NCBI GenBank assembly: GCA_977017645.1
Contig: OZ360238.1
Coordinates: forward strand, 85,312,001 to 85,376,000
DNA from: Torpedo marmorata
Taxonomy: Eukaryota
DNA length: 64,000 nt
Direction of reading: 5' to 3'
The translations under genes and the position numbers were made by a program. The notes under the pieces are model-generated. The model worked only from the letters and a program-made list of their open reading frames with translations, had not been told where the DNA came from and made no database searches. Positions 26,022 to 58,530 of this stretch are shown here, one piece after another (position 1 is the stretch's first letter; the number at the start of each line of letters is the position of its first letter).

Positions 26022-29000
26022 TATCAGAATCAGAATTTATTGTCATGAACAAGTCATGAAATTCGGTGTTTTGCGGCAGCATCATAGTGCAAACATTCAT
26101 ATTATAACTATCTTACGACATTACTATAAAAAATATAAATAATAGTGCACGAAAAGTAAGGCAGTGTCTTTGGTTCATTGATTATTCAGGAATCTGATGG
26201 CAGCAGGGAAGAAGCTGTCCTTGTGCCATTGAGTGTTCGTCTTTAGGCTCCTGTACCTTTTTCTCGATGGTAGCAGAGTGAAGAGGGCATTTGCCTACCC
26301 TGGAGGGCATGGCCTGGGTGGTGGGGGTCTTTGAGGATAGAGGCTGCTTTTTTAAGACACCTCCTCATGTAGATGTCCTCGATGGAGTGAAGTCTGGTGC
26401 CTGTGATGTCACAGGCCGAGTTAACAACCCTCTGGAGTTTATTCTTGTCCTGAGAGTTGGCGCCTCCATACCAGGCAGTGATGCAACAAGCCAGAATGCT
26501 CTCCACGGTACACCTGTAGAAGTTTACGAGAGTCTTCGGTGACATACCGAATCTCCTCAGACACCTCACAAAGTATAGCCGCTGGCGAGCCTTCTTTGCG
26601 ATTGCATCAACATGGAGGCTCCAGGACAGATCCTCGGAGATGTTGACACCCAGGAATTTGAAGTTCTTGACCCTCTCCACTACTGAGCCCTCGATGAGGA
26701 CTGGGTCGTGTTCCCCTGACTTCCTCCTGAAGTCCACAATCATCTCCTTGGTTTTTCTGACGTTGAGTGCAAGGTTGTTGTTGTTACACCATTCAATGAG
26801 CTGATCTACCTCCCTCCTGTACGCTTCCTCATTGCCGTTTGTGATTCTGCTGACAACTGTGGTGTCATCGGCAAACTTGTAGATGGCATTGGAATTGTGC
26901 CTGGCCACACAGTCATGGGTGTATAACGAGTAGAGCAGTGTGCTAAGCACGCATCCTTGGGGTGCGCCTGTGTTGATAATCAGTGAGGAGGAGACGTTGT
27001 TTCCAATTCGTACTGACTGTGGTCTTCCGATGAGAAAGTCAAGGATCCAGTTGCAGAGTGGGGTACAGAGGCCTAGAGTTTGCAGCTTCTTGACCAGCAC
27101 TAAGAGAATAATGGTATTAAAGCTGTAGTCGATGAAGAGCAGCCGTATGTATGAATTGCTGTTTTCGAGGTGATCCAGAGCTGAGTGGAGAGCCAGCGAT
27201 ATTGCATCTGCTGTGGAGCGATTGTGACGATAGGCGAATTGCAGTGGGTCCAGATCTTTGCTTAGGTACGTGTTAATTCTGGCCATGACCAGCCTCTCAA
27301 AGCATTTCATCACAGTAGAAGTGCGTGCTACTGGGCGGTAGTCATTGAGGCAGCTCACACTACTCTTCTTGGGTACTGGGATGATTGATGCCCTTTTGAA
27401 GCAGGTGGGAACCTTTGTCTTCCGCAATGAGAGGTTGAAAATGTCCGTGAATCAAGATTCTTTTATGCACTTATCAGAAGCAAATGATAATATTTTAATC
27501 GGTGGGGATTTTAATTGTTGTTTTGATCCAATAATAGATAAAACATCGAAATCAACTATTAGAACTAAAACTGCGAAAATAATTTTTTTTTGATGAAAGA
27601 TTTGAATTTAATAGATATTTGGAGGAAGTTGAATCCAAGAGAAAAAGATTATTCCTTTTATTCTTTTAGACATGATTCTTATTCTAGAATAGACATGTTT
27701 TTATTGTCATCACAATTAGAAGATAGAGTGACTCAAGCACAATATAAAGCAAGAATAATTTCTGATCACTCGCCTCTAATAATGTCATGTATAATTCCAG
27801 AAAAAGAAAAATATATATATACTGTAGATGGAGATTAAATTCTTCTTTATTGAAAAGAACGGATTTTTGTAATTATATAAGAAGAAAAATTCAAGAATTT
27901 TTACAGATTAACTCTAATTCGATTGACAATAAATTTATTATTTGAGAAGCTCTAAAGGCTTATTTAAGAGGTCAAATAATAAGTTATTCAGCAAAAGTTA
28001 AGAAGGAATATGTTCAGGAATTAGATAATTTGGAGAAGGAGATTGAGTTTCTGGAGAAAGATTTGCAAAAGAAGAGATCAGAAGAAAAGAGGAGGAATTT
28101 AATCGAAAAAAAATGGTATTATAATACGTTACAAACATATAAAATGGGAAAATTAATTGAAAGAACTAAGCAAAGATATTATGAATTGGGAGAAAGAGCG
28201 CATAAAGTGTTGGCGTGGCAATTAAAGAAAGAACAAACTTCTAGAACTATAAATGCCATAAAAAAGAATTCAAAGAAAATAACATATAAACCTCGAGAAA
28301 TAAATGATTCCTTTAGGGAATTTTATTTAAATTTATATAAATCCCAAACTGATAAAGATAATTCTAAAATTAATGCATTTTTATCTAAAATTAAGTTACC
28401 TAGATTGAATATTCAAAATAAAGAACTTTTAGATTCATCATTTACGATGAGAGAAGTTAATGATGTTCTCAGTTCTTTAACAAGTGGAAAATCTCCGGGG
28501 GAGGATGGTTTCCCACCAGAATTTTATAAGGAATTTAAGGATTTATTGATACCTCCATATATGGAGATGTTAAAACAAATAACGGAAACTCATTCTCTAC
28601 CGGAAACATTTTCAAATGCAATAATAACAGTTATACCTAAAAAAGATAGAAATTTGTTGAAAATAGAATCATATAGACCAATTTCATTGTTAAATGTGGA
28701 TTATAAGACAATGGCGAAAATTTTAGCAAATAGAGTGGCTAAATATTTATCAGATTTAATTCATGTAGATCAAGCAGGTTTTATTAAGAATAGATATTCA
28801 AAAGATAATATAGCCAGGTTAATCAGTTTAATAAATGTGGCACAAAAGAAAGAGGAATTAACATTATTATTAACATTAGATGCTGAAAAGGCTTTTGATA
28901 GATTAGAGTGGAATTATTTATTTAAAGTATTGGAAAAATTTGGTTTTGGAACTACATTTATTAATTGGATTAAAACTATATATAAAGAACCTTCTGCCAG

Positions 29001-31443
29001 AGTGGTGACAAATGGACACATTTCTTCAAAATTTTTGTTGACTAGGTCGACTAGACAAGGATGTCCTTTGTTACCAGCATTGTTTATTTTAGCAATAGAA
29101 CCTTTGGCAGAATTAATTAGACAAGATATTAAGATTGTAGGTATTAAGGTTGGAAGAGAAGAGTATAAAATTAGTTTATTTTCAGATGATGTATTGATTT
29201 ATATGACAAAACCCATTACTTCTTTAATACAATTGAATGTTTTATTGAAAGAATACGGGGAGATATCTGGTTATGATTAATTCTGATAAAAGTGAAATTA
29301 TGGCATTGACACAAGGGGATTATAGTAAATGTAAAGAAATTACACAATTTAAATGGTCAAAGGAAGGAATTAAATATTTGGGAATAAAGACTGATACAAA
29401 ATTAGCTAATTTATATAAATTAAATTATTTACCATTATTTATGAAAATTAAAAAAGATTTAGAAAGTTGGAAGGATTTACCTATAACTTTAATAGGAAGG
29501 GTAAATTGTATTAAAATGAATGTCTTTCCAAGAATTCAATATCTTTTTCAATCAATTCCTTATGAAATTCCTCAGAAATTCTTCAAAGATTTAAATTTAA
29601 TTATTAGGAAGTTTTTGTGGAAAGGAAAGTTAGCTAGAGTAGGTATGGAGAAATTAACTTGGAATTATGAAATGGGTGGTTTACAACTTCCTAATTTTCA
29701 AAATTATTATAAAGCAGCTCAATTAAAATTTATTAATGAAATGTTTGATTTTGGAAAATCTTTTGCTTGGATTAGAATATAATTAAATAATATAGGAGAA
29801 GATTTGAAAGAAGAAGTTATTTATAAATGGAATTCTAAATTAGTATTAATAAGAGGGAAAAATTCTCCTATTTTTAAACATTTGTTAGAAATATGGAATA
29901 GAGTGGATAGAGAGATAGGAGGGAAAGGGTTAATTTCTCTAAAAATGCCTTTATATCAAAATAATCAATTATTTAAAATTTGGTTCCAAAAGGGAATTAA
30001 GTAAATAAATGATTGTTTTGAATCTAGTAAATTTATTACTTTTCAAAGAATGAAAGAAAAGTTTAATGTATAAAATAATACACTTTTTGCTTATAACCAA
30101 ATCAAAGCATTTTTAGTTGGAAAGTTGGGTTATAGTTTGACTTTACCAAGACAAAGTGAACTGGAATTATTAGTTTCTAATGGAGGTGTAAATAAATTTA
30201 TTTCTCAAATGTATAGATTGTTACACAGAAAAATGCCTAAAGTAGGAATTCACAAGTCAAGATTAAAATGGGAATCAGATCTGAATGTAACAATAGATGA
30301 AGAACATTGGAAAGAATTATGTAAACTAAGTATGACAAAGATTATTAACGTTAGTGCAATATAATTTTTTTCATCAATTATATTTAACACCGAAAAAAAT
30401 TAAAGAAATTTAATCCGACATTATCTGGTTTATGTTTTAGATGTAATAGAGAGGAAGGTTCTTTTGTACACTCTACTTGGTTTTGTCCAAAGATATATGA
30501 TTTTTGGTTGAAAGTCAAAAAGTTTTTAGACAAAGTATTAAGAATTACACTCCCAATGGACCCTATGATATTTTTGTTTGGAGATATTAAAAGAATTAGT
30601 ATTAAGATGAAATTAAATATGTATCAAATAGAAATTTTGCGAATTGCTTTAGCTGTTTCTAAGAAATGCATTGCTATTACATGGAAATCTGATGTAGATT
30701 TAGGGTTAGATAGATGGCATGCAGAACTTCGTTCAGCTATACCACTTGAAAAAATTACTTATAATTTACGTAATAAATATCTTTTTTTTAAAAATATGGA
30801 GCCCATATATAAAAACGGTTGGTTTAAGGATTTGAAGATCTCTGGATATCAGATCTGACTGGTGAACCTATCCTCCACAATAAAATCATCTTATAGTTGT
30901 TCTTTTTTTAGATTGACATTCTCCTTATTCTATCTTTTTCTTTCTTTTTTATTTTTATTTTAGTAGATTAGTAGGGATGGGAGGGTTAGGGAGGGGAGGG
31001 AGGGCGGGGGTTGAAAATGTATCACAAGTATTTTGATAATTTCATATTTTACCTTATGTATTTTGTGATTTTATATTTAAAAAAAATTTAAAAAAAGAAA
31101 ATGTCCGTGAACACTCCGGCTAGTTGGTTGGCGCAGATTTTCAGTACCCTGCCAGGTACGCCGTCAGGGCCTGACGCCTTGTGAGGGTTCACCCTCTTGA
31201 ATGATGTTCTGACGTCGCCCTCAGAGACATGATATCACAGGGTCCTCAGCCTTTTCAGGGATTCTAGTAGGCACTGTTTGGTTCTTCTTCTCAAAGCGGG
31301 CATAGAAGGTGTTCAGCTCATCGGGTAGTGAAGCATCACAGCCACCTATAGTGTTCGCCCTTGCTTTGTAGGCTGTGACGGCCTGCACTCCCTGCCATAG
31401 CTGGTGTGTATCTGTCTCTGTCTCTAGCTTCCTCCGGAATTGT
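26022..31443 (-). mobile_element. Rex1/Babar-type LINE (young, RT largely open at 26243-27427), split by an L1 insertion
   Basis: [27 protein letters not shown] and KFADDTTVV motifs; (TCTGAT)n tail; continues at 31112-31443 beyond the TSD; 3' part nearly identical to 63035-63807. Confidence 0.93.
27452..31096 (+). mobile_element. L1-clade LINE, 3.6 kb, 5'-truncated within the endonuclease domain
   Basis: GGDFN, SRID and SDHSP endonuclease motifs, RT and CCHC; 15-bp TSD GAAAATGTCCGTGAA at 27437-27451 and 31097-31111; same family as 12940-16229. Confidence 0.97.
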
Positions 31444-48904: not shown

Positions 48905-49168
48905 CTTTTTAAATTTAGACAACATATAGCCTGGTAACAGGCCATTTCGGCCCTCGAGTCCGTGCTGCCCAATTTACACCCCATTAACCTACACCCCCGG
49001 TACGTTTTGAACTGTGGGAGGAAACCAGAGCCCCCGGAGAAAACCCACGCAGACACGGGGAGAACATACAAACTCCTTACAGACAGCACGGGACTCGAAC
49101 CCTGGTCCGGACCCGATCGCTGGCGCTTTAAAGGCGTTGCGCTAACCACTACGCCAACCGTGCCGCCC
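48905..49168 (-). mobile_element. Young V-type SINE (subfamily with an extra GGACC segment in the head)
   Basis: Closely matches the reverse complement of 58266-58530; CpGs intact. Confidence 0.9.
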
Positions 49169-49935: not shown

Positions 49936-50953
49936 CGGAGCGAAGACTAATGCCCATGATGGCGCTGGCCATCATTTGGCCCAATGTCCATGCTTGGTCA
50001 TGAAGCAATTCCCTTTTCCCGTATAATTTTCTCTGTAAGTCCACATTCCCATCAAATTCTGCCACCTAGTTACACCCAGGGATATTTACAGCAGCCAATT
50101 CACCAACTTTCGAATATTTGGGATGTGGGTGGAAACTGGAGCACAGGGGGAAAGTGCAAACTTCACACAGACACCAGAGGAGAGGACTGAACTCAGGTCA
50201 CCAGACCTTTGAGATGGGGTTGAACCATACAGTGCAGATACCAATAAATGGCAGGCAGGAGAAGCAGACGAGTGAGAAGGAACCAAAGGACATCCATGGA
50301 GTATGGAAACCGGCCCATTGGTCCAACTCATCCACTTCCTCCAAGGCGCTTATCTACGCGTCCCATTTACCTGTGCTTGGCCCATATCCCTCTAAAACCT
50401 TCCTTTCCACTTACCTGTCCCTATTGTCTTTGAAATGTTGTAAGTGTGCCCGCCTCTACTGCATTGTTCTTTCCCATTACCCTCTGTGTGGAAAGACATG
50501 TCCCTCAGATCTGCTTTAAACTTACATTAATCACGGACTGCTCTGACTACTAAAGCACTATCTGTACATCACACTTCTCTTGCGCTATGATGACTGTGAA
50601 TATTTATTCACCATCTATCTTTTGAGATTATATTTATATTATATTTGAGATTTATATCATTATCTATTTTACATTTAATTGAAGGTATTCTATTGTAGTT
50701 TTATTAATGAAATACCTGTTCAGCTGCAGCAAGTAAGAATTTTGGTTATGTATGTACATTCTACAATGTGTATGACAATAAACATTATCATTATAATCTC
50801 TCCCCACTTATCCTAAACCTATATCCTCTAGTTTGAGCCTCCCCTACTCTGGGAAATAGACCGTGACAATCTTCCTGATCTATGTCCCCCATGATTTTGT
50901 AAATCTTTTAAAAAAAATCTTTTATTTAAATTTTTTAATCACACGATAGTTCA

Positions 50954-51526
50954 TGTAAGAGCCATAGGCTTGATTACTTACCTTGGTCGCGGCGCTGCGA
51001 TGTTCTCGGCAGGTCACAGAGGAGTCGCGGTGTTTGTAGGCCGTGCTAGGCCTATTTAGTACTCTGCGCATGCGCTAGAGTACTGACGGGCACATGCGCA
51101 GTTGGGAATGACGGCAGTGTGCGCGGTGGAGTATGCGCAGTGGAATAGGCGCATTGAGCATGTGCGAATCGGGAAAAAGCTTGGGGAAAAGATGGAGGCT
51201 TAGAGGAGGGTGAGTGAGATCGCCATATCTTTTATTGACCGTTTCATGGAACATTTAACCATGTTTCATTGAACATTTAAACTCGTTTCATTATGGTTTA
51301 AAGTCATTTAATTGAACATCTAAATACAGTCAAAGGAATCGTTTAAAGGAACTCATTAAACATCGTTATCAAGAACTGTTTATATTTAAGTCATTGAAGA
51401 TTGCTGCAAGTCACGTGTGTAAATAAAGTTTTTTGAACATATCGGACTTTGTTAGTAAATTAATTGAAACGCGTCAAAAACAAGTATCTCACCTAGCCTC
51501 CAAGTTGTTGGATCGAAGTCACTATA
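50954..51526 (+). repeat. 5' LTR (573 bp)
   Basis: TGTAAGAGCC...CACTATA; AATAAA near 51422; NRF1-like TGCGCATGCGC near 51065. Confidence 0.95.
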
Positions 51527-51986
51527 TTATTAGTCAATAAAAGAGGTTGTTTGGAACAGAAAATTGAAGGAAAGAAGATAGGATAATCTCTCTGCGCTTT
51601 GGACTGATATTTAAAATAAAATGGTGGCCATCTTGGAGATGCCTTGAGTTGGAGGCAGTTTGTAATCCACATCCATCTGCCATGAGTAACAGCCAGAGAG
51701 GGATTTAAAGCTTCAAATCTTATAGTAAAGTGTACTATAAATACGTTGGAGAAACCATTTTTGGAAAATCAGCGATATTATTGATGGATGTTGTGGTTGA
51801 AACTCGTTTGTGAATAGCAGCACATTACAGTCATTTGAAGTGGTAGGCATATAAGTCTGTGGACTCCTTCTGTGTATCTTTGGCAAGTAAGAACACAGAT
51901 TGGAATTGCTGCCGCTGGTCCATTGGGGACTGCTGATTTGGCTAGTGTTGTGTATGCTTGAAGGACAGTGGAACAAGACGAGTAAA

Positions 51987-54675
51987 ATGGCCGCAGCAGC
52001 CTCTGATGCAGCAGCCACTGATGTATCAGTAGCTGACGCAGCAACCGCTGATGTTGCTGTTAAGGACCAACGTATGGAAGACATGAAGTTTGCGGATATT
52101 AAAGAAGAATTGAAGCGATTGAAAAAGGACATAAGTGGAAATGAAAAGGTTCTCATCGCAAGATTGAAGCTGGCAAAGGAAGAAGAGGCAGCTTCATGAG
52201 ATGAACAAGAAGATAACGTGGAAATGGCTGAAATTGTGTCACCAAATGAAGAGGATGAAGAAAATGATGAAGAAAATGAAGAGGTTGAAGATTCAAAGGA
52301 TGTACAATTCGAATTGGAGAAAGAGGTAAGTATGAAGACAACATATGACCTGCAGGACGAAATACAAGCAAGTGACAGTGTCTCAAATGCTGAAAGCAGG
52401 AGAAGCAAACGAAGTTCTGGTTTGAGGTCCAGAGTTTCTCGTACTTCAAGTTTTGCATCGTCACGTACAAAGATTGATGTTAACTTGGCCGCTCTTCTTG
52501 CACAACAAAAAATGCTTAAGGATAAACATATTTTAGAACAAAAGGAGGAGCAGCTGAGACAAAAGGAGGAGCAGCTAAGACAAAAGGAGGAGCAGCTAAA
52601 GGAGCAGATAAGGCAAGAGAAGGAGCAGCTAAGGCAGAGAAAAGAACAGCAGGAGCTGGAAGCAAACATTACTATTGCCAAGGCAAAAAAGAAAGCAATA
52701 GAAGGCTCAATGTTATCTGGTGCTAGAAGTAAATTATCTAAAGTGTCTGATAATAAAAGGTCATATTTAAAAAAAGAGTCACAGGAAAAGAAACCAACCA
52801 AAAGGGTAGATATTTTAGGACCAAGGATACAAGACTTGCATATACAAGGACAAATCTTTCAAGAGCATATTGGTATCAAGTCACATGTACCAGTGGTAAC
52901 ATCTGAAGACAAAGCTGCGGCTTGGGTTCGGTCGAACGATGCAGCTTCCTTGTTATTTGAGTCAAGCATCAGAAATATGGAAGAAACTACTCCAGTGAGG
53001 TTTCCAGATACATTAGCTGCAACAAGAGATGGTGAACAGAACAATGTATTGTCATCCAAGGAAAGACAAAATGAAATCGCTGCATCATTGATTCAGTCTT
53101 CTTTACCCAAGAAAGAGATACAATTTTTGATGGAGATCCACTTCAGTATCAATCATTTATCAGATCTTTCAAATGCAATATTGAAAATAAATGCCAAGAT
53201 CGTGATGAATGTCTTTATTATTTGGAAATGTTCACAAAGGGACATCCAAAAGAACTGGTAAAGAGTTGTCAACATATGTCCTCAGAAAGAGGATTAGACA
53301 GAGCTAAGGCTTTACTGGAACAACATTTTGGCAACAAGCATCGAATTGCTTTAGCTTATATGGATAAAGCTCTTAAATGGACATCAATAAAACAAAATGA
53401 TGTAAAGGCTCTACAAGAATATACTCTATTTTTTAGAGGATGTTGTAATGCCATGGAAGATATCAATAATATTCGTGAGCTTGAAGTGCCTGGTAATATG
53501 TGAATCATCTTAGAAAAATTACCTTACAAGTTATGGGATAGATGGAGAAATTTGGCTTGTGATTTTAAGGAAATTACGGTCGAAGAGCTACCTTAAAGGA
53601 TTTGGTAAATTTTCTTGAACGGCAGGTGTACATTGAAACAGATCCAATATATGGAAATACCAGAGACAATTCAATGGGCAAAGATGTAAGGAGGTCTAAC
53701 TCACAGCCTAGTCTGAAATTGAAAAGGAGTACTTTTGCTACTAATGTGTCAGTTATAAATAAAGAAAAGGACAAAGTAAATAAGAAAAAGGTAAGTTTGC
53801 CTGATGAAAAGAGTTGTTTGTTCTGTAAAGGTGGATATTCTTTGGAAATGTGTTTACGATTGGAAAAGAAGGAACATAAGGAGAAGATCGCTTTCTTAAA
53901 GGAAAATGGAATATGTTTTAGCTGTCTGTGTAAAGGGCACATCAGTAAAAACTGTGAGAAGTGAATTAATTGTAACATATGCAATTTGAAACATCCTAGA
54001 ATTTTGCATATCCATCACAGAAACAAGGAATTGGAAAAGGAGCAAACAGAAAACAATGTTATAACCTCGGTTCAGACAAGTGGTCTTACCGGGGCCGGTG
54101 TGGATAACTGCAAACTTTCGATCATGCCTGTACAAGTCAAGACCAAGAAAGGGGATGCAACAGTACAAACATATGCATTTCTAGACCCAGGCAGCACTGC
54201 ATCGTTTTGCACGGAAGGACTAATGAATAAACTTAATATTCAAGGAAGAAGATCAAGAATTATGTTAAAAACCATGGGACAAGAAAAGGTCGTTGAAACC
54301 AGCATTGTTTCAGGCTTAGAGGTTGCTGGATTGGATGACAAAAATTTTGTGATCTTCCAAGTTTATATACTCAGAAGACTATGCCTGTGCATGAAAGAAA
54401 TATTCCTCATCAAAAGGATATCCATCATTTAGCTTATCTGTGGAAGGTTTATTTATCTGAAATTAATTCTGAGATAGAAATACTGATTGGTTTTGATGTG
54501 CCAAAGGTTTTGGAACCACTAGAAGTAATACAGAGTAGAAGGAATGGACTTTACGCTATTAGAACCGAGCTTGGTTGGACAATCAATGGACCATTGTAAA
54601 GAAATAATGATATTGCTCAGGAACAGTTAGCGATAAATATTAATAGAATTTCGGTTGTGAAAGTTGATGAGTTAA
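51987..54675 (+). pseudogene. BEL/Pao gag-protease, disrupted by stops and frameshifts
   Basis: ATG at 51987 in AAAATGG context; SAP-like motif; coiled coil; LPKKEI..FDGDPLQY (DUF1759-like, across a frameshift); CLFC..C, CFSC..H..C and CNIC..H..LH knuckles; TYAFLDPGSTASF; LGWTINGPL. Confidence 0.92.
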
Positions 54676-55104
54676 GCGAAGAGCAAAAAACTGTGATTAA
54701 GAAAATCACTTTTGAAGAAAAGAAAACAGATCAATGTGAAAATAAATCAAGGGTATTTAAAACAACATTGAAGGAATTATTTTCATCAGAAATAGATGAA
54801 AGTGAAGTATTAGAAGATGTTGCAAATAATACTATTGATTATTCATGTGTAATTGAATCAGATACAGAAATAAAACAAGTGACTGAAAACAAATCTGAAT
54901 GTAGATTTTGTAGTTCAGAGCTTACAACAGACAAAGCTAATGAAGAAATATTGCAATGTGATGTAAAACTGGAGAACACAGAAAATTGTGCTGATGGAAT
55001 AAAGAATAATGTGAATGATAATTTAATGCAATTGAATTCAGAGAACAAAATGTTGAAAGGGGAATTGGAAATATTAGATAATCATGAAAACAGTAAACAG
55101 AAAG

Positions 55105-55410
55105 ATTTAATTGTAAGTAAAACTCGCAAAGCCAGAAGCGGAAGAAAAGAATAACTGCTGAAGAAATGAATACAGTTATTGAGGAAAGAGATTCAGCATT
55201 ATCAAAATGTAAAAGGTTGGAGGAAGAGATTAATATTTTGAAAGAGAACAAGTTATTGGTTAATAACACAAAACAGTTGACTATAAAAACCAATCAAAAA
55301 TGTAAATTGAATGTTCAGCTATTAACAATGCAGAAAGAATGTGATATTGCATTGCAGAAATGTAACAAGCAAGATGAAGACATTAAAAAAATTCAAGTTT
55401 ACCGCAGCAG
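55105..55410 (+). pseudogene. MIPOL1: Captured intronless MIPOL1-like coding fragment
   Basis: Translates RITAEEMNTVIEERDSALSKCKRLEEEINILKE..NNTKQLT..NQ..L..QLLTMQ..CDIALQKC.K.DEDIKKIQVYRS; recalled human MIPOL1 reads RITAEEMSALIEERDAALSKCKRLEQELHHVKEQ..NNMRHLT..NQ..LKAKLLSMQQARETAVQQYKKLEEEIQTLRVYYS. Recognition is from memory. Confidence 0.8.
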
Positions 55411-55631
55411 GGTTGACAATAGAAATATCAATGTATCACATGATATCAAATTCTAGTTCTAAGAGTTTAAATTCTTCACATGAGAAGTGGAATGCTGAAG
55501 AAAGGAATAAAGTGAAACGACATGCTGAAGAAGTGCCTTGTGTTAAATTCAAAAGAAAAACTGTATCTATTTTGTCTGAGGAAGATTTGAGGTTTACTGG
55601 TCGACATTTTAACTCAAAGATTATGGAGATA

Positions 55632-55825
55632 AAAGAACTTTAAAGAGACATTGTAATTATTATGGATAATTCAACTCCAAGAAACTCCTGGTTACTTGAA
55701 AAAATTATTGAGCCTATTCAGGACAAAAGGGGACTTGGCGTCAAGTGTGAATTAAAACTAAGACTGGCTTTCTAAATAGACCTATTAACAAGGTCTGCCT
55801 TCTGTTGGAGACGAAGGAACTTTGA
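55632..55825 (+). pseudogene. BEL/Pao integrase C-terminal tail (DUF5641-like)
   Basis: DIVIIMDNSTPRNSWLL.KI....DKRGL and IKTKTGFLNRPINKVCLLLE followed by a stop. Confidence 0.85.
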
Positions 55826-56029
55826 TAAATACAAACTGATTTTATTTGTTGTTGTATACTTCACAGGTTACAGACTTTTTGTTAATTCAGAGTTATAGTA
55901 CTCTGGTCTTATGAAGAAAGAAGAAAGAAGATTTGTATATTGTTTGATTGTTATGGTTATTGTTATTTATCATTTATTGTGTAATTATTATTTAAGACAT
56001 TGTGTCTAATTATAATAATTAGGGGCCGG

Positions 56030-56651
56030 TGTAAGAGCCGTAGGCTTAATTACTTACCTTGGTCGCAGCGCTGCGATGTTCTCGGCGGGTCACGGAGGAG
56101 TCGCGGTGTTTGTAGGCTGTGCTAGGCTTATTTAGTACTCTGTACATGCACTAGAGTACCGACAGGCACATGCGCAGTTGGGAATGACGGCAGTGTGCGC
56201 GGTGGAGTGTGCGCGGTGGAGTGTGCGCGGTGGAGTGTGCGCGGTGGAGTATGCGCAGTGGAATAAGCGCATTGAGCATGCGCGAATCGGGAAAAAGCTT
56301 GGGGAAAAAGATGGAGGCTTAGAGGAGGGTGAGTGAGATCGCCATATCTTTTATTGACCGTTTCATGGAACATTTAACCACGTTTCATTGAACATTTAAA
56401 CTCGTTTCATTATGGTTTAAAGTCATTTAATTGAACATCTAAATACAGTCAAAGGAATCGTTTAAAGGAACTCATTAAACATCGTTATCAAGAACTGTTT
56501 ATATTTAAGTCATTGACGATTGCTGCAAGTCACGTGTGTAAATAAAGTTTTTTGAACATATCGGACTTTGTTAGTAAATTAATTGAAACGCGTCAAAAAC
56601 AAATATCTCACCTAGCCTCCAATTGACTATTGTTGCATCGAAGTCACTATA
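56030..56651 (+). repeat. 3' LTR (622 bp)
   Basis: Direct repeat of 50954-51526 with three extra 14-bp units and a 7-bp indel. Confidence 0.95.
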
Positions 56652-57489
56652 GTTCATGTTTACAAACTTCAAAATTATTCAAATACATGTGATATATTTT
56701 CACCCTGCCTCTCCCTCCCCTCCCTAACCCACCAACCTCTACTATTCTAATAAAATAAAGAGAAATGAAAAAAAAATAGAATGTGGTGAATGTCAATGTA
56801 AAAGAAAAAACAACTATACATTAATTTTATTGTGGAACACAGGTTTGCCAGTCAGATCTGATATCAAGAGATCTTCAAATCTTTAAACCTACAGTTTTTA
56901 TATATGGGCTCCATACCTTCATAAAGAAATGATATTTATTACGTAAATTATAAGTAATTTTTTCAAGTGGTATGCATGAACGAAGTTCTGCATGTCATCT
57001 TTCTAACCCTAAATCTACATCTAAATTAAAAGTTGATATAGCTTTTTTACAAGAGACACATTTGACAGAAATAGAACATCAGAAGTTGAAAAGAGAATGG
57101 GTTGGTCAAGTGGTTGCATCTTCATTTAATTCTAAAGCAAAAGGAGTGGCTGTACTAATTAATAAAAAGTTACCTTTTAAAATACAATCTGTGGTTATAG
57201 ATGTTGCAGGAAGATTTGTTTTTATAAATTCTCAAATATACTCGGAGATTTTGTAAATCTTGATAATGTCACAACACCCCACCACCCCCCACCCCCACCC
57301 ACTTTGCTCCCAACTTTTCCAATCTCTCCAAACTCGTGTCCCGACAGCATCCTTGTGAGTCTTTTCGGCACCTTCTATCACTGAACTGTGTCCTCGTTGT
57401 AGCATGGTGACCAATTGCTGATAGATTTAACTGAGGGAAAGTCAGTGGAGGCTTGAGTGGAGTTGGGGTGAATTAACTATCTCGATATC

Positions 57490-58265: not shown

Positions 58266-58530
58266 GGGCGGCACGGTTGGCGTAGCGGTTAGCGCAACGC
58301 CTTTACAGCGCCAGCGATTTGGACCGGACCTGGGTTCGAATCCCACGCTGTCTGTAAGGAGTTTGTACGTTCTCCCCGTGTCTGCGTGGGATTTCTCCGG
58401 GGGCTCCGGTTTCCTCCCACCCTTCAAAAACGTACCGGGGTGTAGGTTAATGGGGTGTAAATTGGGCGGCACGCACTCGTAGGGCTGAATTGGCTTGATA
58501 CAGTGCTGTATGTCTAAATTTTTAAAAAAA
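58266..58530 (+). mobile_element. Young V-type SINE directly following a Penelope terminal fragment (58145-58265)
   Basis: A-box TGGCGTAGCGGTTAG, B-box GGTTCGAATCC. Confidence 0.9.

Follow-up and report, generated by a model that had tools for sequence, protein, structure and literature searches.

A BEL/Pao retrotransposon family of Torpedo marmorata with spliced BRCA1, MIPOL1 and Elongin A sequence in place of its pol core, and a likely circular RNA template

How does a retrotransposon that has lost its polymerase come to carry host genes in the gap, and why does the gap stay open to translation? Both questions are raised by an LTR element within a stretch of 64,000 bases of the Torpedo marmorata genome (hereafter, the window). 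An initial annotation described it as a BEL/Pao element in which the pol core had given way to a captured fragment of MIPOL1. The element belongs to a family of more than 6,000 copies, whose pol core has been swapped for spliced pieces of BRCA1, MIPOL1, and Elongin A. That the MIPOL1 piece was templated by a circular RNA, that related BEL elements mobilize the family, and that the reading frame of the cargo is kept open for the protection of the RNA and not for the protein encoded are all considered likely.

The element and its cargo

The BEL/Pao classification of this 5,698-base element (5.7 kb; window 50954-56651; Table 1) is borne out by its LTRs, by a five-base target-site duplication, by a DUF1759 match in gag (E 6e-6), and by the protease. 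The LTRs differ at 19 of 573 aligned bases, i.e., 3.3%, close to the 3% of the initial annotation. A SAP domain at the N-terminus of gag falls below the Pfam cut-off (E 1e-3), the zinc knuckle motifs were read from the sequence, and positions compared with a sister copy reveal several stops and frameshifts private to the gag of the window copy. Up to 54686, the protease and linker are 86-88% identical to BEL copies that encode reverse transcriptase (RT). Pfam finds no RT, RNase H, or integrase core in the window copy. A single frame running through protease, RT, RNase H (PF05380), and integrase, absent from the window copy, is present in a relative, L137, whose gag-pro region is 83-88% identical to that of the window copy, which is thus a non-autonomous derivative. 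The integrase tail does resume after the gap, as had been claimed, though its DUF5641 match is below the cut-off in the window (E 0.045); in a relic described below (L140), the match reaches 4e-19.

Across the family, target duplications agree at four or five of five bases in six of 11 complete copies (33 tested), and LTRs end in CA in older copies and TA in young ones. A TGG-type primer-binding site directly 3' of the 5' LTR (window 51527-51560) was found in neither cargo nor helper copies. Two inverted copies of a short repeat headed by tRNA sequence flank the element (window 48939-49168 and 58266-58495), and what we take to be LINE-like endonuclease and RT fragments lie close by (56954-57256 and 27946-29277).

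Table 1. Features of the element in the window copy
Feature	Position	Strand	Remarks
Target-site duplication GTTCA, left	50949..50953	+	Identical five bases follow the 3' LTR
5' LTR	50954..51526	+	Starts TG, ends TA; direct repeat of 56030-56651
gag region	51987..54020	+	SAP-like N-terminus, repeat coiled coil, DUF1759, zinc knuckles
Aspartic protease and INRISV linker	54110..54686	+	Asp_protease_2, E 9e-4 (below cut-off)
BRCA1 cargo	54682..55110	+	Two host exons fused without their 8.7-kb intron; four exons in older copies
MIPOL1 exons D (part), E, F, spliced	55103..55407	+	81-87% DNA identity to three host exons, contig C40
Back-splice junction, exon F donor to upstream exon A acceptor	55407..55408	+	From comparison of host and older-copy sequences
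MIPOL1 exon A (part)	55408..55446	+	Exon B piece lost here through a private deletion
Elongin A cargo	55446..55621	+	Remnants of two host exons; five in older copies
Stop codon closing the gag-pro-cargo frame in sister copies	55641..55643	+	386 bases ahead of the 3' LTR
Integrase C-terminal tail (DUF5641)	55645..55823	+	Now out of frame; from 55645 on, 86% identity with an RT-encoding BEL
Short purine-rich tract before 3' LTR	56021..56029	+	Read from the sequence; motif common to sister copies
3' LTR	56030..56651	+	Direct repeat of the 5' LTR
Target-site duplication GTTCA, right	56652..56656	+	Equals left copy

What fills the gap is a set of intron-free exons from three host genes, located on separate contigs (BRCA1 on C61, MIPOL1 on C40, Elongin A on C41). 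The proposed MIPOL1 identity stands: the cargo of a sister copy matches ray MIPOL1 at 69% over 105 amino acids (E 4e-36), an assignment made by protein and DNA similarity and not by a Pfam family, and the cargo runs across exon borders of the host gene without introns, the three host exons matched by 55103-55407 being spaced 29 kb and 78 kb apart. It was, however, an incomplete account, missing BRCA1, Elongin A, and the disorder of the MIPOL1 exons. The BRCA1 piece of the window is 62% identical to ray BRCA1 over 142 amino acids and 71% and 80% identical in DNA to the two host exons; BRCA1 comparisons give an E-value of 4e-48 for an older copy and 84% identity to the nearest named proteins, those of an electric ray. 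For Elongin A, DNA identities to the host exons are 83% and 90% in the window, and an older copy matches the family PF06881 with an E-value of 1.4e-14. At C25:175318134-175337048, another match to the Elongin A family, likewise split by introns, is probably a paralogue.

The fullest picture comes from one older copy, which carries four BRCA1, five or six MIPOL1, and five Elongin A exons, 91-98% identical to the host; here 15 exons from three contigs are joined at GT/AG borders with no introns. The window copy keeps eroded parts of these same exons (71-90% identical to host). The cargo has neither a poly(A) tract nor a target duplication of its own. A fused BRCA1-MIPOL1 protein is absent from the best 120 of 226 protein matches, which is weak evidence.

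The open reading frame at 54600-55154 is real, and so is the frameshift that ends it, though the latter lies near 55136 instead of 55150. The frameshift, like a deletion of 150-152 bases at 55446, is private to the window copy, being absent from the four of four sister copies compared. In sister copies, gag, protease, and cargo form a single frame of 648-721 residues, in line with the gag-pro-cargo fusion proposed at the outset.

The MIPOL1 junction, the relic, and the likely template

The order of the MIPOL1 exons is not that of the gene. The cargo encodes residues 445-553 and then, immediately, 295-380. The host's exon F ends in TACTACAG/gtaag and its exon A, 206 kb upstream, begins tag/CAGGGCT (slashes mark exon borders); the corresponding junction reads TACTACAGCAGGGCT in older copies and TACCGCAGCAGGGTT in the window, agreeing to the base with the host donor and acceptor. 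Exons A and B each occur once in a 320-kb stretch of the host gene, upstream of F, with no second copy of A-B after exon F in that stretch, so the host gene has no exon duplication to match. Since the exons are out of order yet joined at exact splice sites, the template of the MIPOL1 piece is likely to have been a circular RNA made by back-splicing. The initial proposal, that template switching captured spliced host RNA, is supported, except that for MIPOL1 the RNA was most likely a circle and not an mRNA. Judging by exon borders, the predicted circle of exons A to F would measure 780 bases. A search with the part of MIPOL1 downstream of exon F returned only the host gene (one match among 51 candidates). 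Exon A has tandem acceptors (tag/CAG/G), of which the cargo uses the first. The predicted length is a multiple of three and all the exons are open in the frame of the gene, so the circle, if translated, would meet no stop.

A search with host exon C led to a single further place, the relic L140, in which BRCA1 is followed by MIPOL1 exons D (part), E, F, A, B, C, and C' (part) and then, in frame, by the integrase tail, with no Elongin A. Its MIPOL1 content amounts to 724 of the 780 circle bases (93%), falling 56 short of one round (47 bases of D and nine of C'), and includes no MIPOL1 exon from outside A-F. The genome holds its 3' joint nowhere else, and its 5' part is lost in the stretch examined; this single-copy relic may stand on a side branch.

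The other five switch points differ from the F/A junction in that none (0/5) lies on an exon border, and they show microsimilarities of 2-11 bases: 10 of 11 bases between pol and BRCA1, AG within four of five bases between BRCA1 and MIPOL1, AAGAA between MIPOL1 and the integrase tail (in L140), and GACAGA between Elongin A and the integrase tail. At the remaining switch, in place of a microsimilarity, older copies have, after MIPOL1 exon C, 17 bases of LTR end and then Elongin A (e.g., L071:7680-7700). The insert matches the 5' end of the family's own LTR at 16 positions, and the whole joint has 108 exact matches in the genome. It may have been made by integrase or by an RT run-off jump from the end of a cDNA. 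The partner's frame is preserved at four of the five capture joints and lost at the last, about 40 codons ahead of the stop.

These features suggest how the chimera may have arisen. Within a BEL particle, RT would have jumped from the integrase tail to a MIPOL1 circle, copied 724 of its 780 bases through the back-splice junction, then passed to BRCA1 mRNA and finally back to pol. In a later event, Elongin A exons with 17 LTR-end bases in front would have replaced the last part of the circle's sequence. The chimera would then have spread as a non-autonomous element, with its own Gag and protease and with borrowed RT and integrase, gag-pro passing between it and its helpers.

Other origins for the junction must be weighed. 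The same capture might have drawn on a linear MIPOL1 RNA with repeated exons, arising from trans-splicing or from a tandem duplication since lost. Such an RNA would give an identical junction, indistinguishable in DNA, and yet the host stretch offers no A-B copy after exon F, no MIPOL1 protein among the 120 matches listed covers more than 76% of a junction-spanning cargo query, and the relic falls 56 bases short of a full round with exons from A-F only, as a circle predicts and a linear RNA need not; we regard this as improbable. Or perhaps RT switched templates within an ordinary linear MIPOL1 mRNA and happened to land on two exon borders. The element did make several other switches, and the exon ends at the 5' side of the junction both read AG, a two-base microhomology, so a lucky jump is not impossible. 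It would, however, have had to hit donor and acceptor both exactly, when none of the five other switch points falls on a border, and is accordingly very improbable. Least credible of all is that LINEs, abundant in the flanks, made ordinary retrocopies that landed in one copy of the element. The junction sequences refute this: the cargo pieces end inside exons with no poly(A) and no duplication of their own, pol has been replaced and not interrupted, and the switch points carry microsimilarity. Copying from a circular RNA remains the preferred account.

The fossil series gives the events an order. Two trees, one for the BRCA1 piece and one for the protease, each built on 27 rows with at most 8-9 randomly drawn members per group, agree on a progression from older through middle to young copies, with the host and the relic beside the older ones. 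Along the series, the BRCA1 piece moves away from the host (median identity 94, 90, 84, and 79%) and the protease gains identity to a helper (76, 85, and 90%); three RT-encoding copies nest among the young-clade proteases (support 100/98). LTR pairs in the family, measurable in nine of 33 copies, differ by 2.3-11.9% (median 4.0%). Because the cargo has diverged from the host more than LTRs have from each other, the capture is taken to predate the insertions, as had been surmised. Compared with the ray P0004, the cargo shares 0-1 of 12-14 ray-specific changes and 0-1 of three host-specific ones.

Copies, helpers, and the open frame

The junction serves as a tag for counting. It has 6,319 exact matches in the 6.2-Gb assembly, against none for a reversed control, and a search with cargo DNA gave 97-100% identity at 40 of 40 scored places. 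Of the copies inspected, the pattern turns up in 15 of the 19 top young ones, in 10 of the 17 older ones, and in three of the four encountered by chance in MIPOL1 introns, and from these detection rates an estimate of 8,000-11,000 copies suggests itself, which would amount to less than 1% of the genome even with every copy intact. A pattern for the RT site of related BELs (drawn from 13 related loci) has 2,059 matches. The cargo chimera would thus outnumber its RT-encoding helper by about 3:1, a rough figure because the two patterns differ in looseness.

A trans-mobilized family had been proposed, and the existence of RT-encoding relatives supports it; that they serve as helpers seems probable. 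Their frames extend over 1,361-2,134 amino acids, with a SAP domain at the N-terminus, and their LTRs are 98-100% identical (L136, L137, L139), indicating a helper family recently active. In the helper sample of four copies, gag-pro exchange may have gone in either direction. Nor is the cargo-bearing family confined to this assembly: among four sequencing runs filed under other organism labels, three cover 30 of 30 bins and one 25 of 30, full-coverage runs give 414-743 contig variants, and contigs in three runs bridge the junction.

Four cargo-bearing copies (L037-L068) sit inside introns of the host MIPOL1 gene itself (C40:64323001-64643000), two of them flanking exons C'-D in opposite orientation. 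These introns hold three junction matches, where 0.3-0.7 would be expected by density, a post hoc comparison that may reflect local density. Elsewhere (L069/L070, C42:9563886-9564965), a junction-bearing unit of 405 bases is repeated in tandem within one older copy. Rolling-circle copying was considered for it and rejected, as the unit repeated is an already deleted one and the repeats are 100% identical; it is a local duplication or an effect of assembly.

Why, then, has so decayed a passenger remained open? For the test of selection, the host exon was taken as reference and the commonest codon per column as yardstick, over trimmed exon pieces; L107 and L121, of unclear class, were dropped, as were columns with fewer than five copies or no majority. 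In the young subfamily (35 copies, 340 codon columns), 120 amino-acid changes became fixed and no stop. Private changes predict 8.7 stops (p 1.2e-4), and a simulation with the observed spectrum, which is strongly AT-ward, gave a mean of 10.2, with 0 of 5,000 runs free of stops. Deletions fixed between subfamilies (282, 3, 120, 81, 195, 111, 87, and 24 bases) are all multiples of three, as against about a quarter of private gaps, some of which are alignment noise. All nine joints tested are in frame, each in 28-34 of 33-35 copies, and there is no fixed frameshift.

Continuity of the frame is thus upheld; constraint on the protein scarcely is. The dN/dS of the young cargo is 0.64, compared with 0.83 for private changes (p 0.26); for gag it is 0.31 (p 0.03). 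The ratio for cargo lies below 1 in all three subfamilies (0.61-0.64), with p 0.026 in the middle one, so a weak constraint at the protein level is possible, part of the signal lying on the host branch. The reading frame is selected, the protein sequence hardly. Fixed cargo changes lean strongly toward AT and differ between strands (G>A 42, C>T 42, C>A 26, but G>T 3), and the GC content of the BRCA1 piece has gone from 39% to 29%.

The frame ends some 200-390 bases before the 3' LTR in the helper, the relic, one older copy, and the window. Since BEL RNA has one long frame, a stop near the start of the cargo would put a long 3' UTR behind it; in retroviral RNA such a UTR acts as a decay signal (PMC5580461), work that concerns no BEL element. 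By the proposed mechanism, RNAs with early stops would have gone to nonsense-mediated decay, and lineages with open cargo would have left more copies.

One might instead suppose that the fused polypeptide itself is of use, for example if the MIPOL1 coiled coil took RT's place in dimerizing and so activating the protease, or if Elongin BC were bound by the Elongin A piece. Every cargo does lie in sense and in its own frame, MIPOL1 exons D-F outlast every deletion, and the cargo dN/dS of 0.61-0.64 leans the same way. Against this, MIPOL1 in the young subfamily has a dN/dS of 0.93, with 50 fixed changes in 144 codons, and most of Elongin A is deleted in the most numerous subfamily, including a stretch that we take to be the Elongin BC box, so that a useful polypeptide is unlikely. 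Less likely again is that the cargo is a shield, small-RNA silencing of which would also strike BRCA1, MIPOL1, and Elongin A and so be relaxed by the host. Older copies are indeed 90-98% identical to exons of important genes, and a model of epigenetic conflict has been put forward for maize, yet the abstract that describes it records no rise in copy number for capturing elements (bioRxiv 10.1101/777037). Moreover, the most numerous subfamily is the most diverged (its BRCA1 piece 79% identical to the host), and a shield would not need an open frame. Protection of the RNA from decay is the explanation we prefer.

Relation to known systems

We favor, with somewhat less assurance than the reading given at the outset though still as the probable case, a broader one: that a BEL RT, inside its particle, copied nearly a full round of a host circular RNA, and that the three-gene chimera born of this became a super-parasite outnumbering its helper, persisted across three or more subfamilies and in several species, and was held open by selection on translation alone.

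Neither ingredient is new, since both LTR-mediated capture (PMC5131818) and circRNA pseudogenes (PMC4897178) have been described. In mouse, pseudogenes derived from circRFWD2 (Dong et al. 2016, PMC4897178; 33 of high confidence, 42 in all) likewise carry a back-splice junction in genomic DNA, in many copies, adjoining sequence of an LTR element (MMERVK10C); their mechanism was called mysterious. The present family differs in scale (at least 6,319 copies against 33-42), in belonging to BEL/Pao instead of an ERV, in its visible switch points and near-full round of the circle, and in the in-frame fusion of its junction-bearing piece to gag-pro together with two more genes. Maize Bs1 and similar LTR-mediated retrocopies (Tan et al. 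2016, PMC5131818) also hold partial spliced host RNAs from several parents between LTRs, with microsimilarity at switch points and secondary transposition betrayed by shared switch points; that paper reports capture of several genes and one mosquito case flanked by BEL18, the sole BEL case in the portion of Table S8 covered. There, Bs1 has 1-5 copies, unlike a chimera at about 3:1 over its helper, and the term "circular RNA" is absent from the main text. In openly searchable literature (listings and the starts of abstracts), no account came to light of the family, of vertebrate BEL elements carrying cargo of this kind, or of circRNA junctions multiplied to thousands of copies; the scale, the fossil series, and the detail of the switch points were likewise not found there.

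The route by which circular RNAs enter genomes was left open by the mouse study (PMC4897178). The present family preserves both switch points along with 93% of the predicted circle, and they point to template switching by the RT of an LTR element; the junction would date an ancient back-splicing event from DNA alone. If true, this is a base-level record of circRNA entry that exceeds the known case about 200-fold and has scattered fragments of BRCA1 and Elongin A by the thousand through a vertebrate germline. With its thousands of copies as natural replicates, the family lends itself to two questions: what keeps junk in frame within a defective LTR element, and does small-RNA silencing spread to the host's own BRCA1 and Elongin A genes from the captured pieces? 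In practice, an estimated 8,000-11,000 copies will confuse annotation and read mapping of the three genes, and the calling of circRNAs, in these fishes.

As a BEL/Pao element (Belpaoviridae), the family is conventional in its LTRs, five-base target duplication, single frame, DUF1759 gag, protease, and DUF5641 tail, and departs from the type in having host cargo where RT, RNase H, and the integrase core have gone. A further parallel lies among the acutely transforming retroviruses (v-onc), which are replication-defective, fuse gag in frame to host sequence, and depend on helpers, as this chimera probably does. In contrast to them, it resides in the germline, has no env, and combines three genes, and its cargo, drifting almost neutrally, has been kept through several subfamilies.
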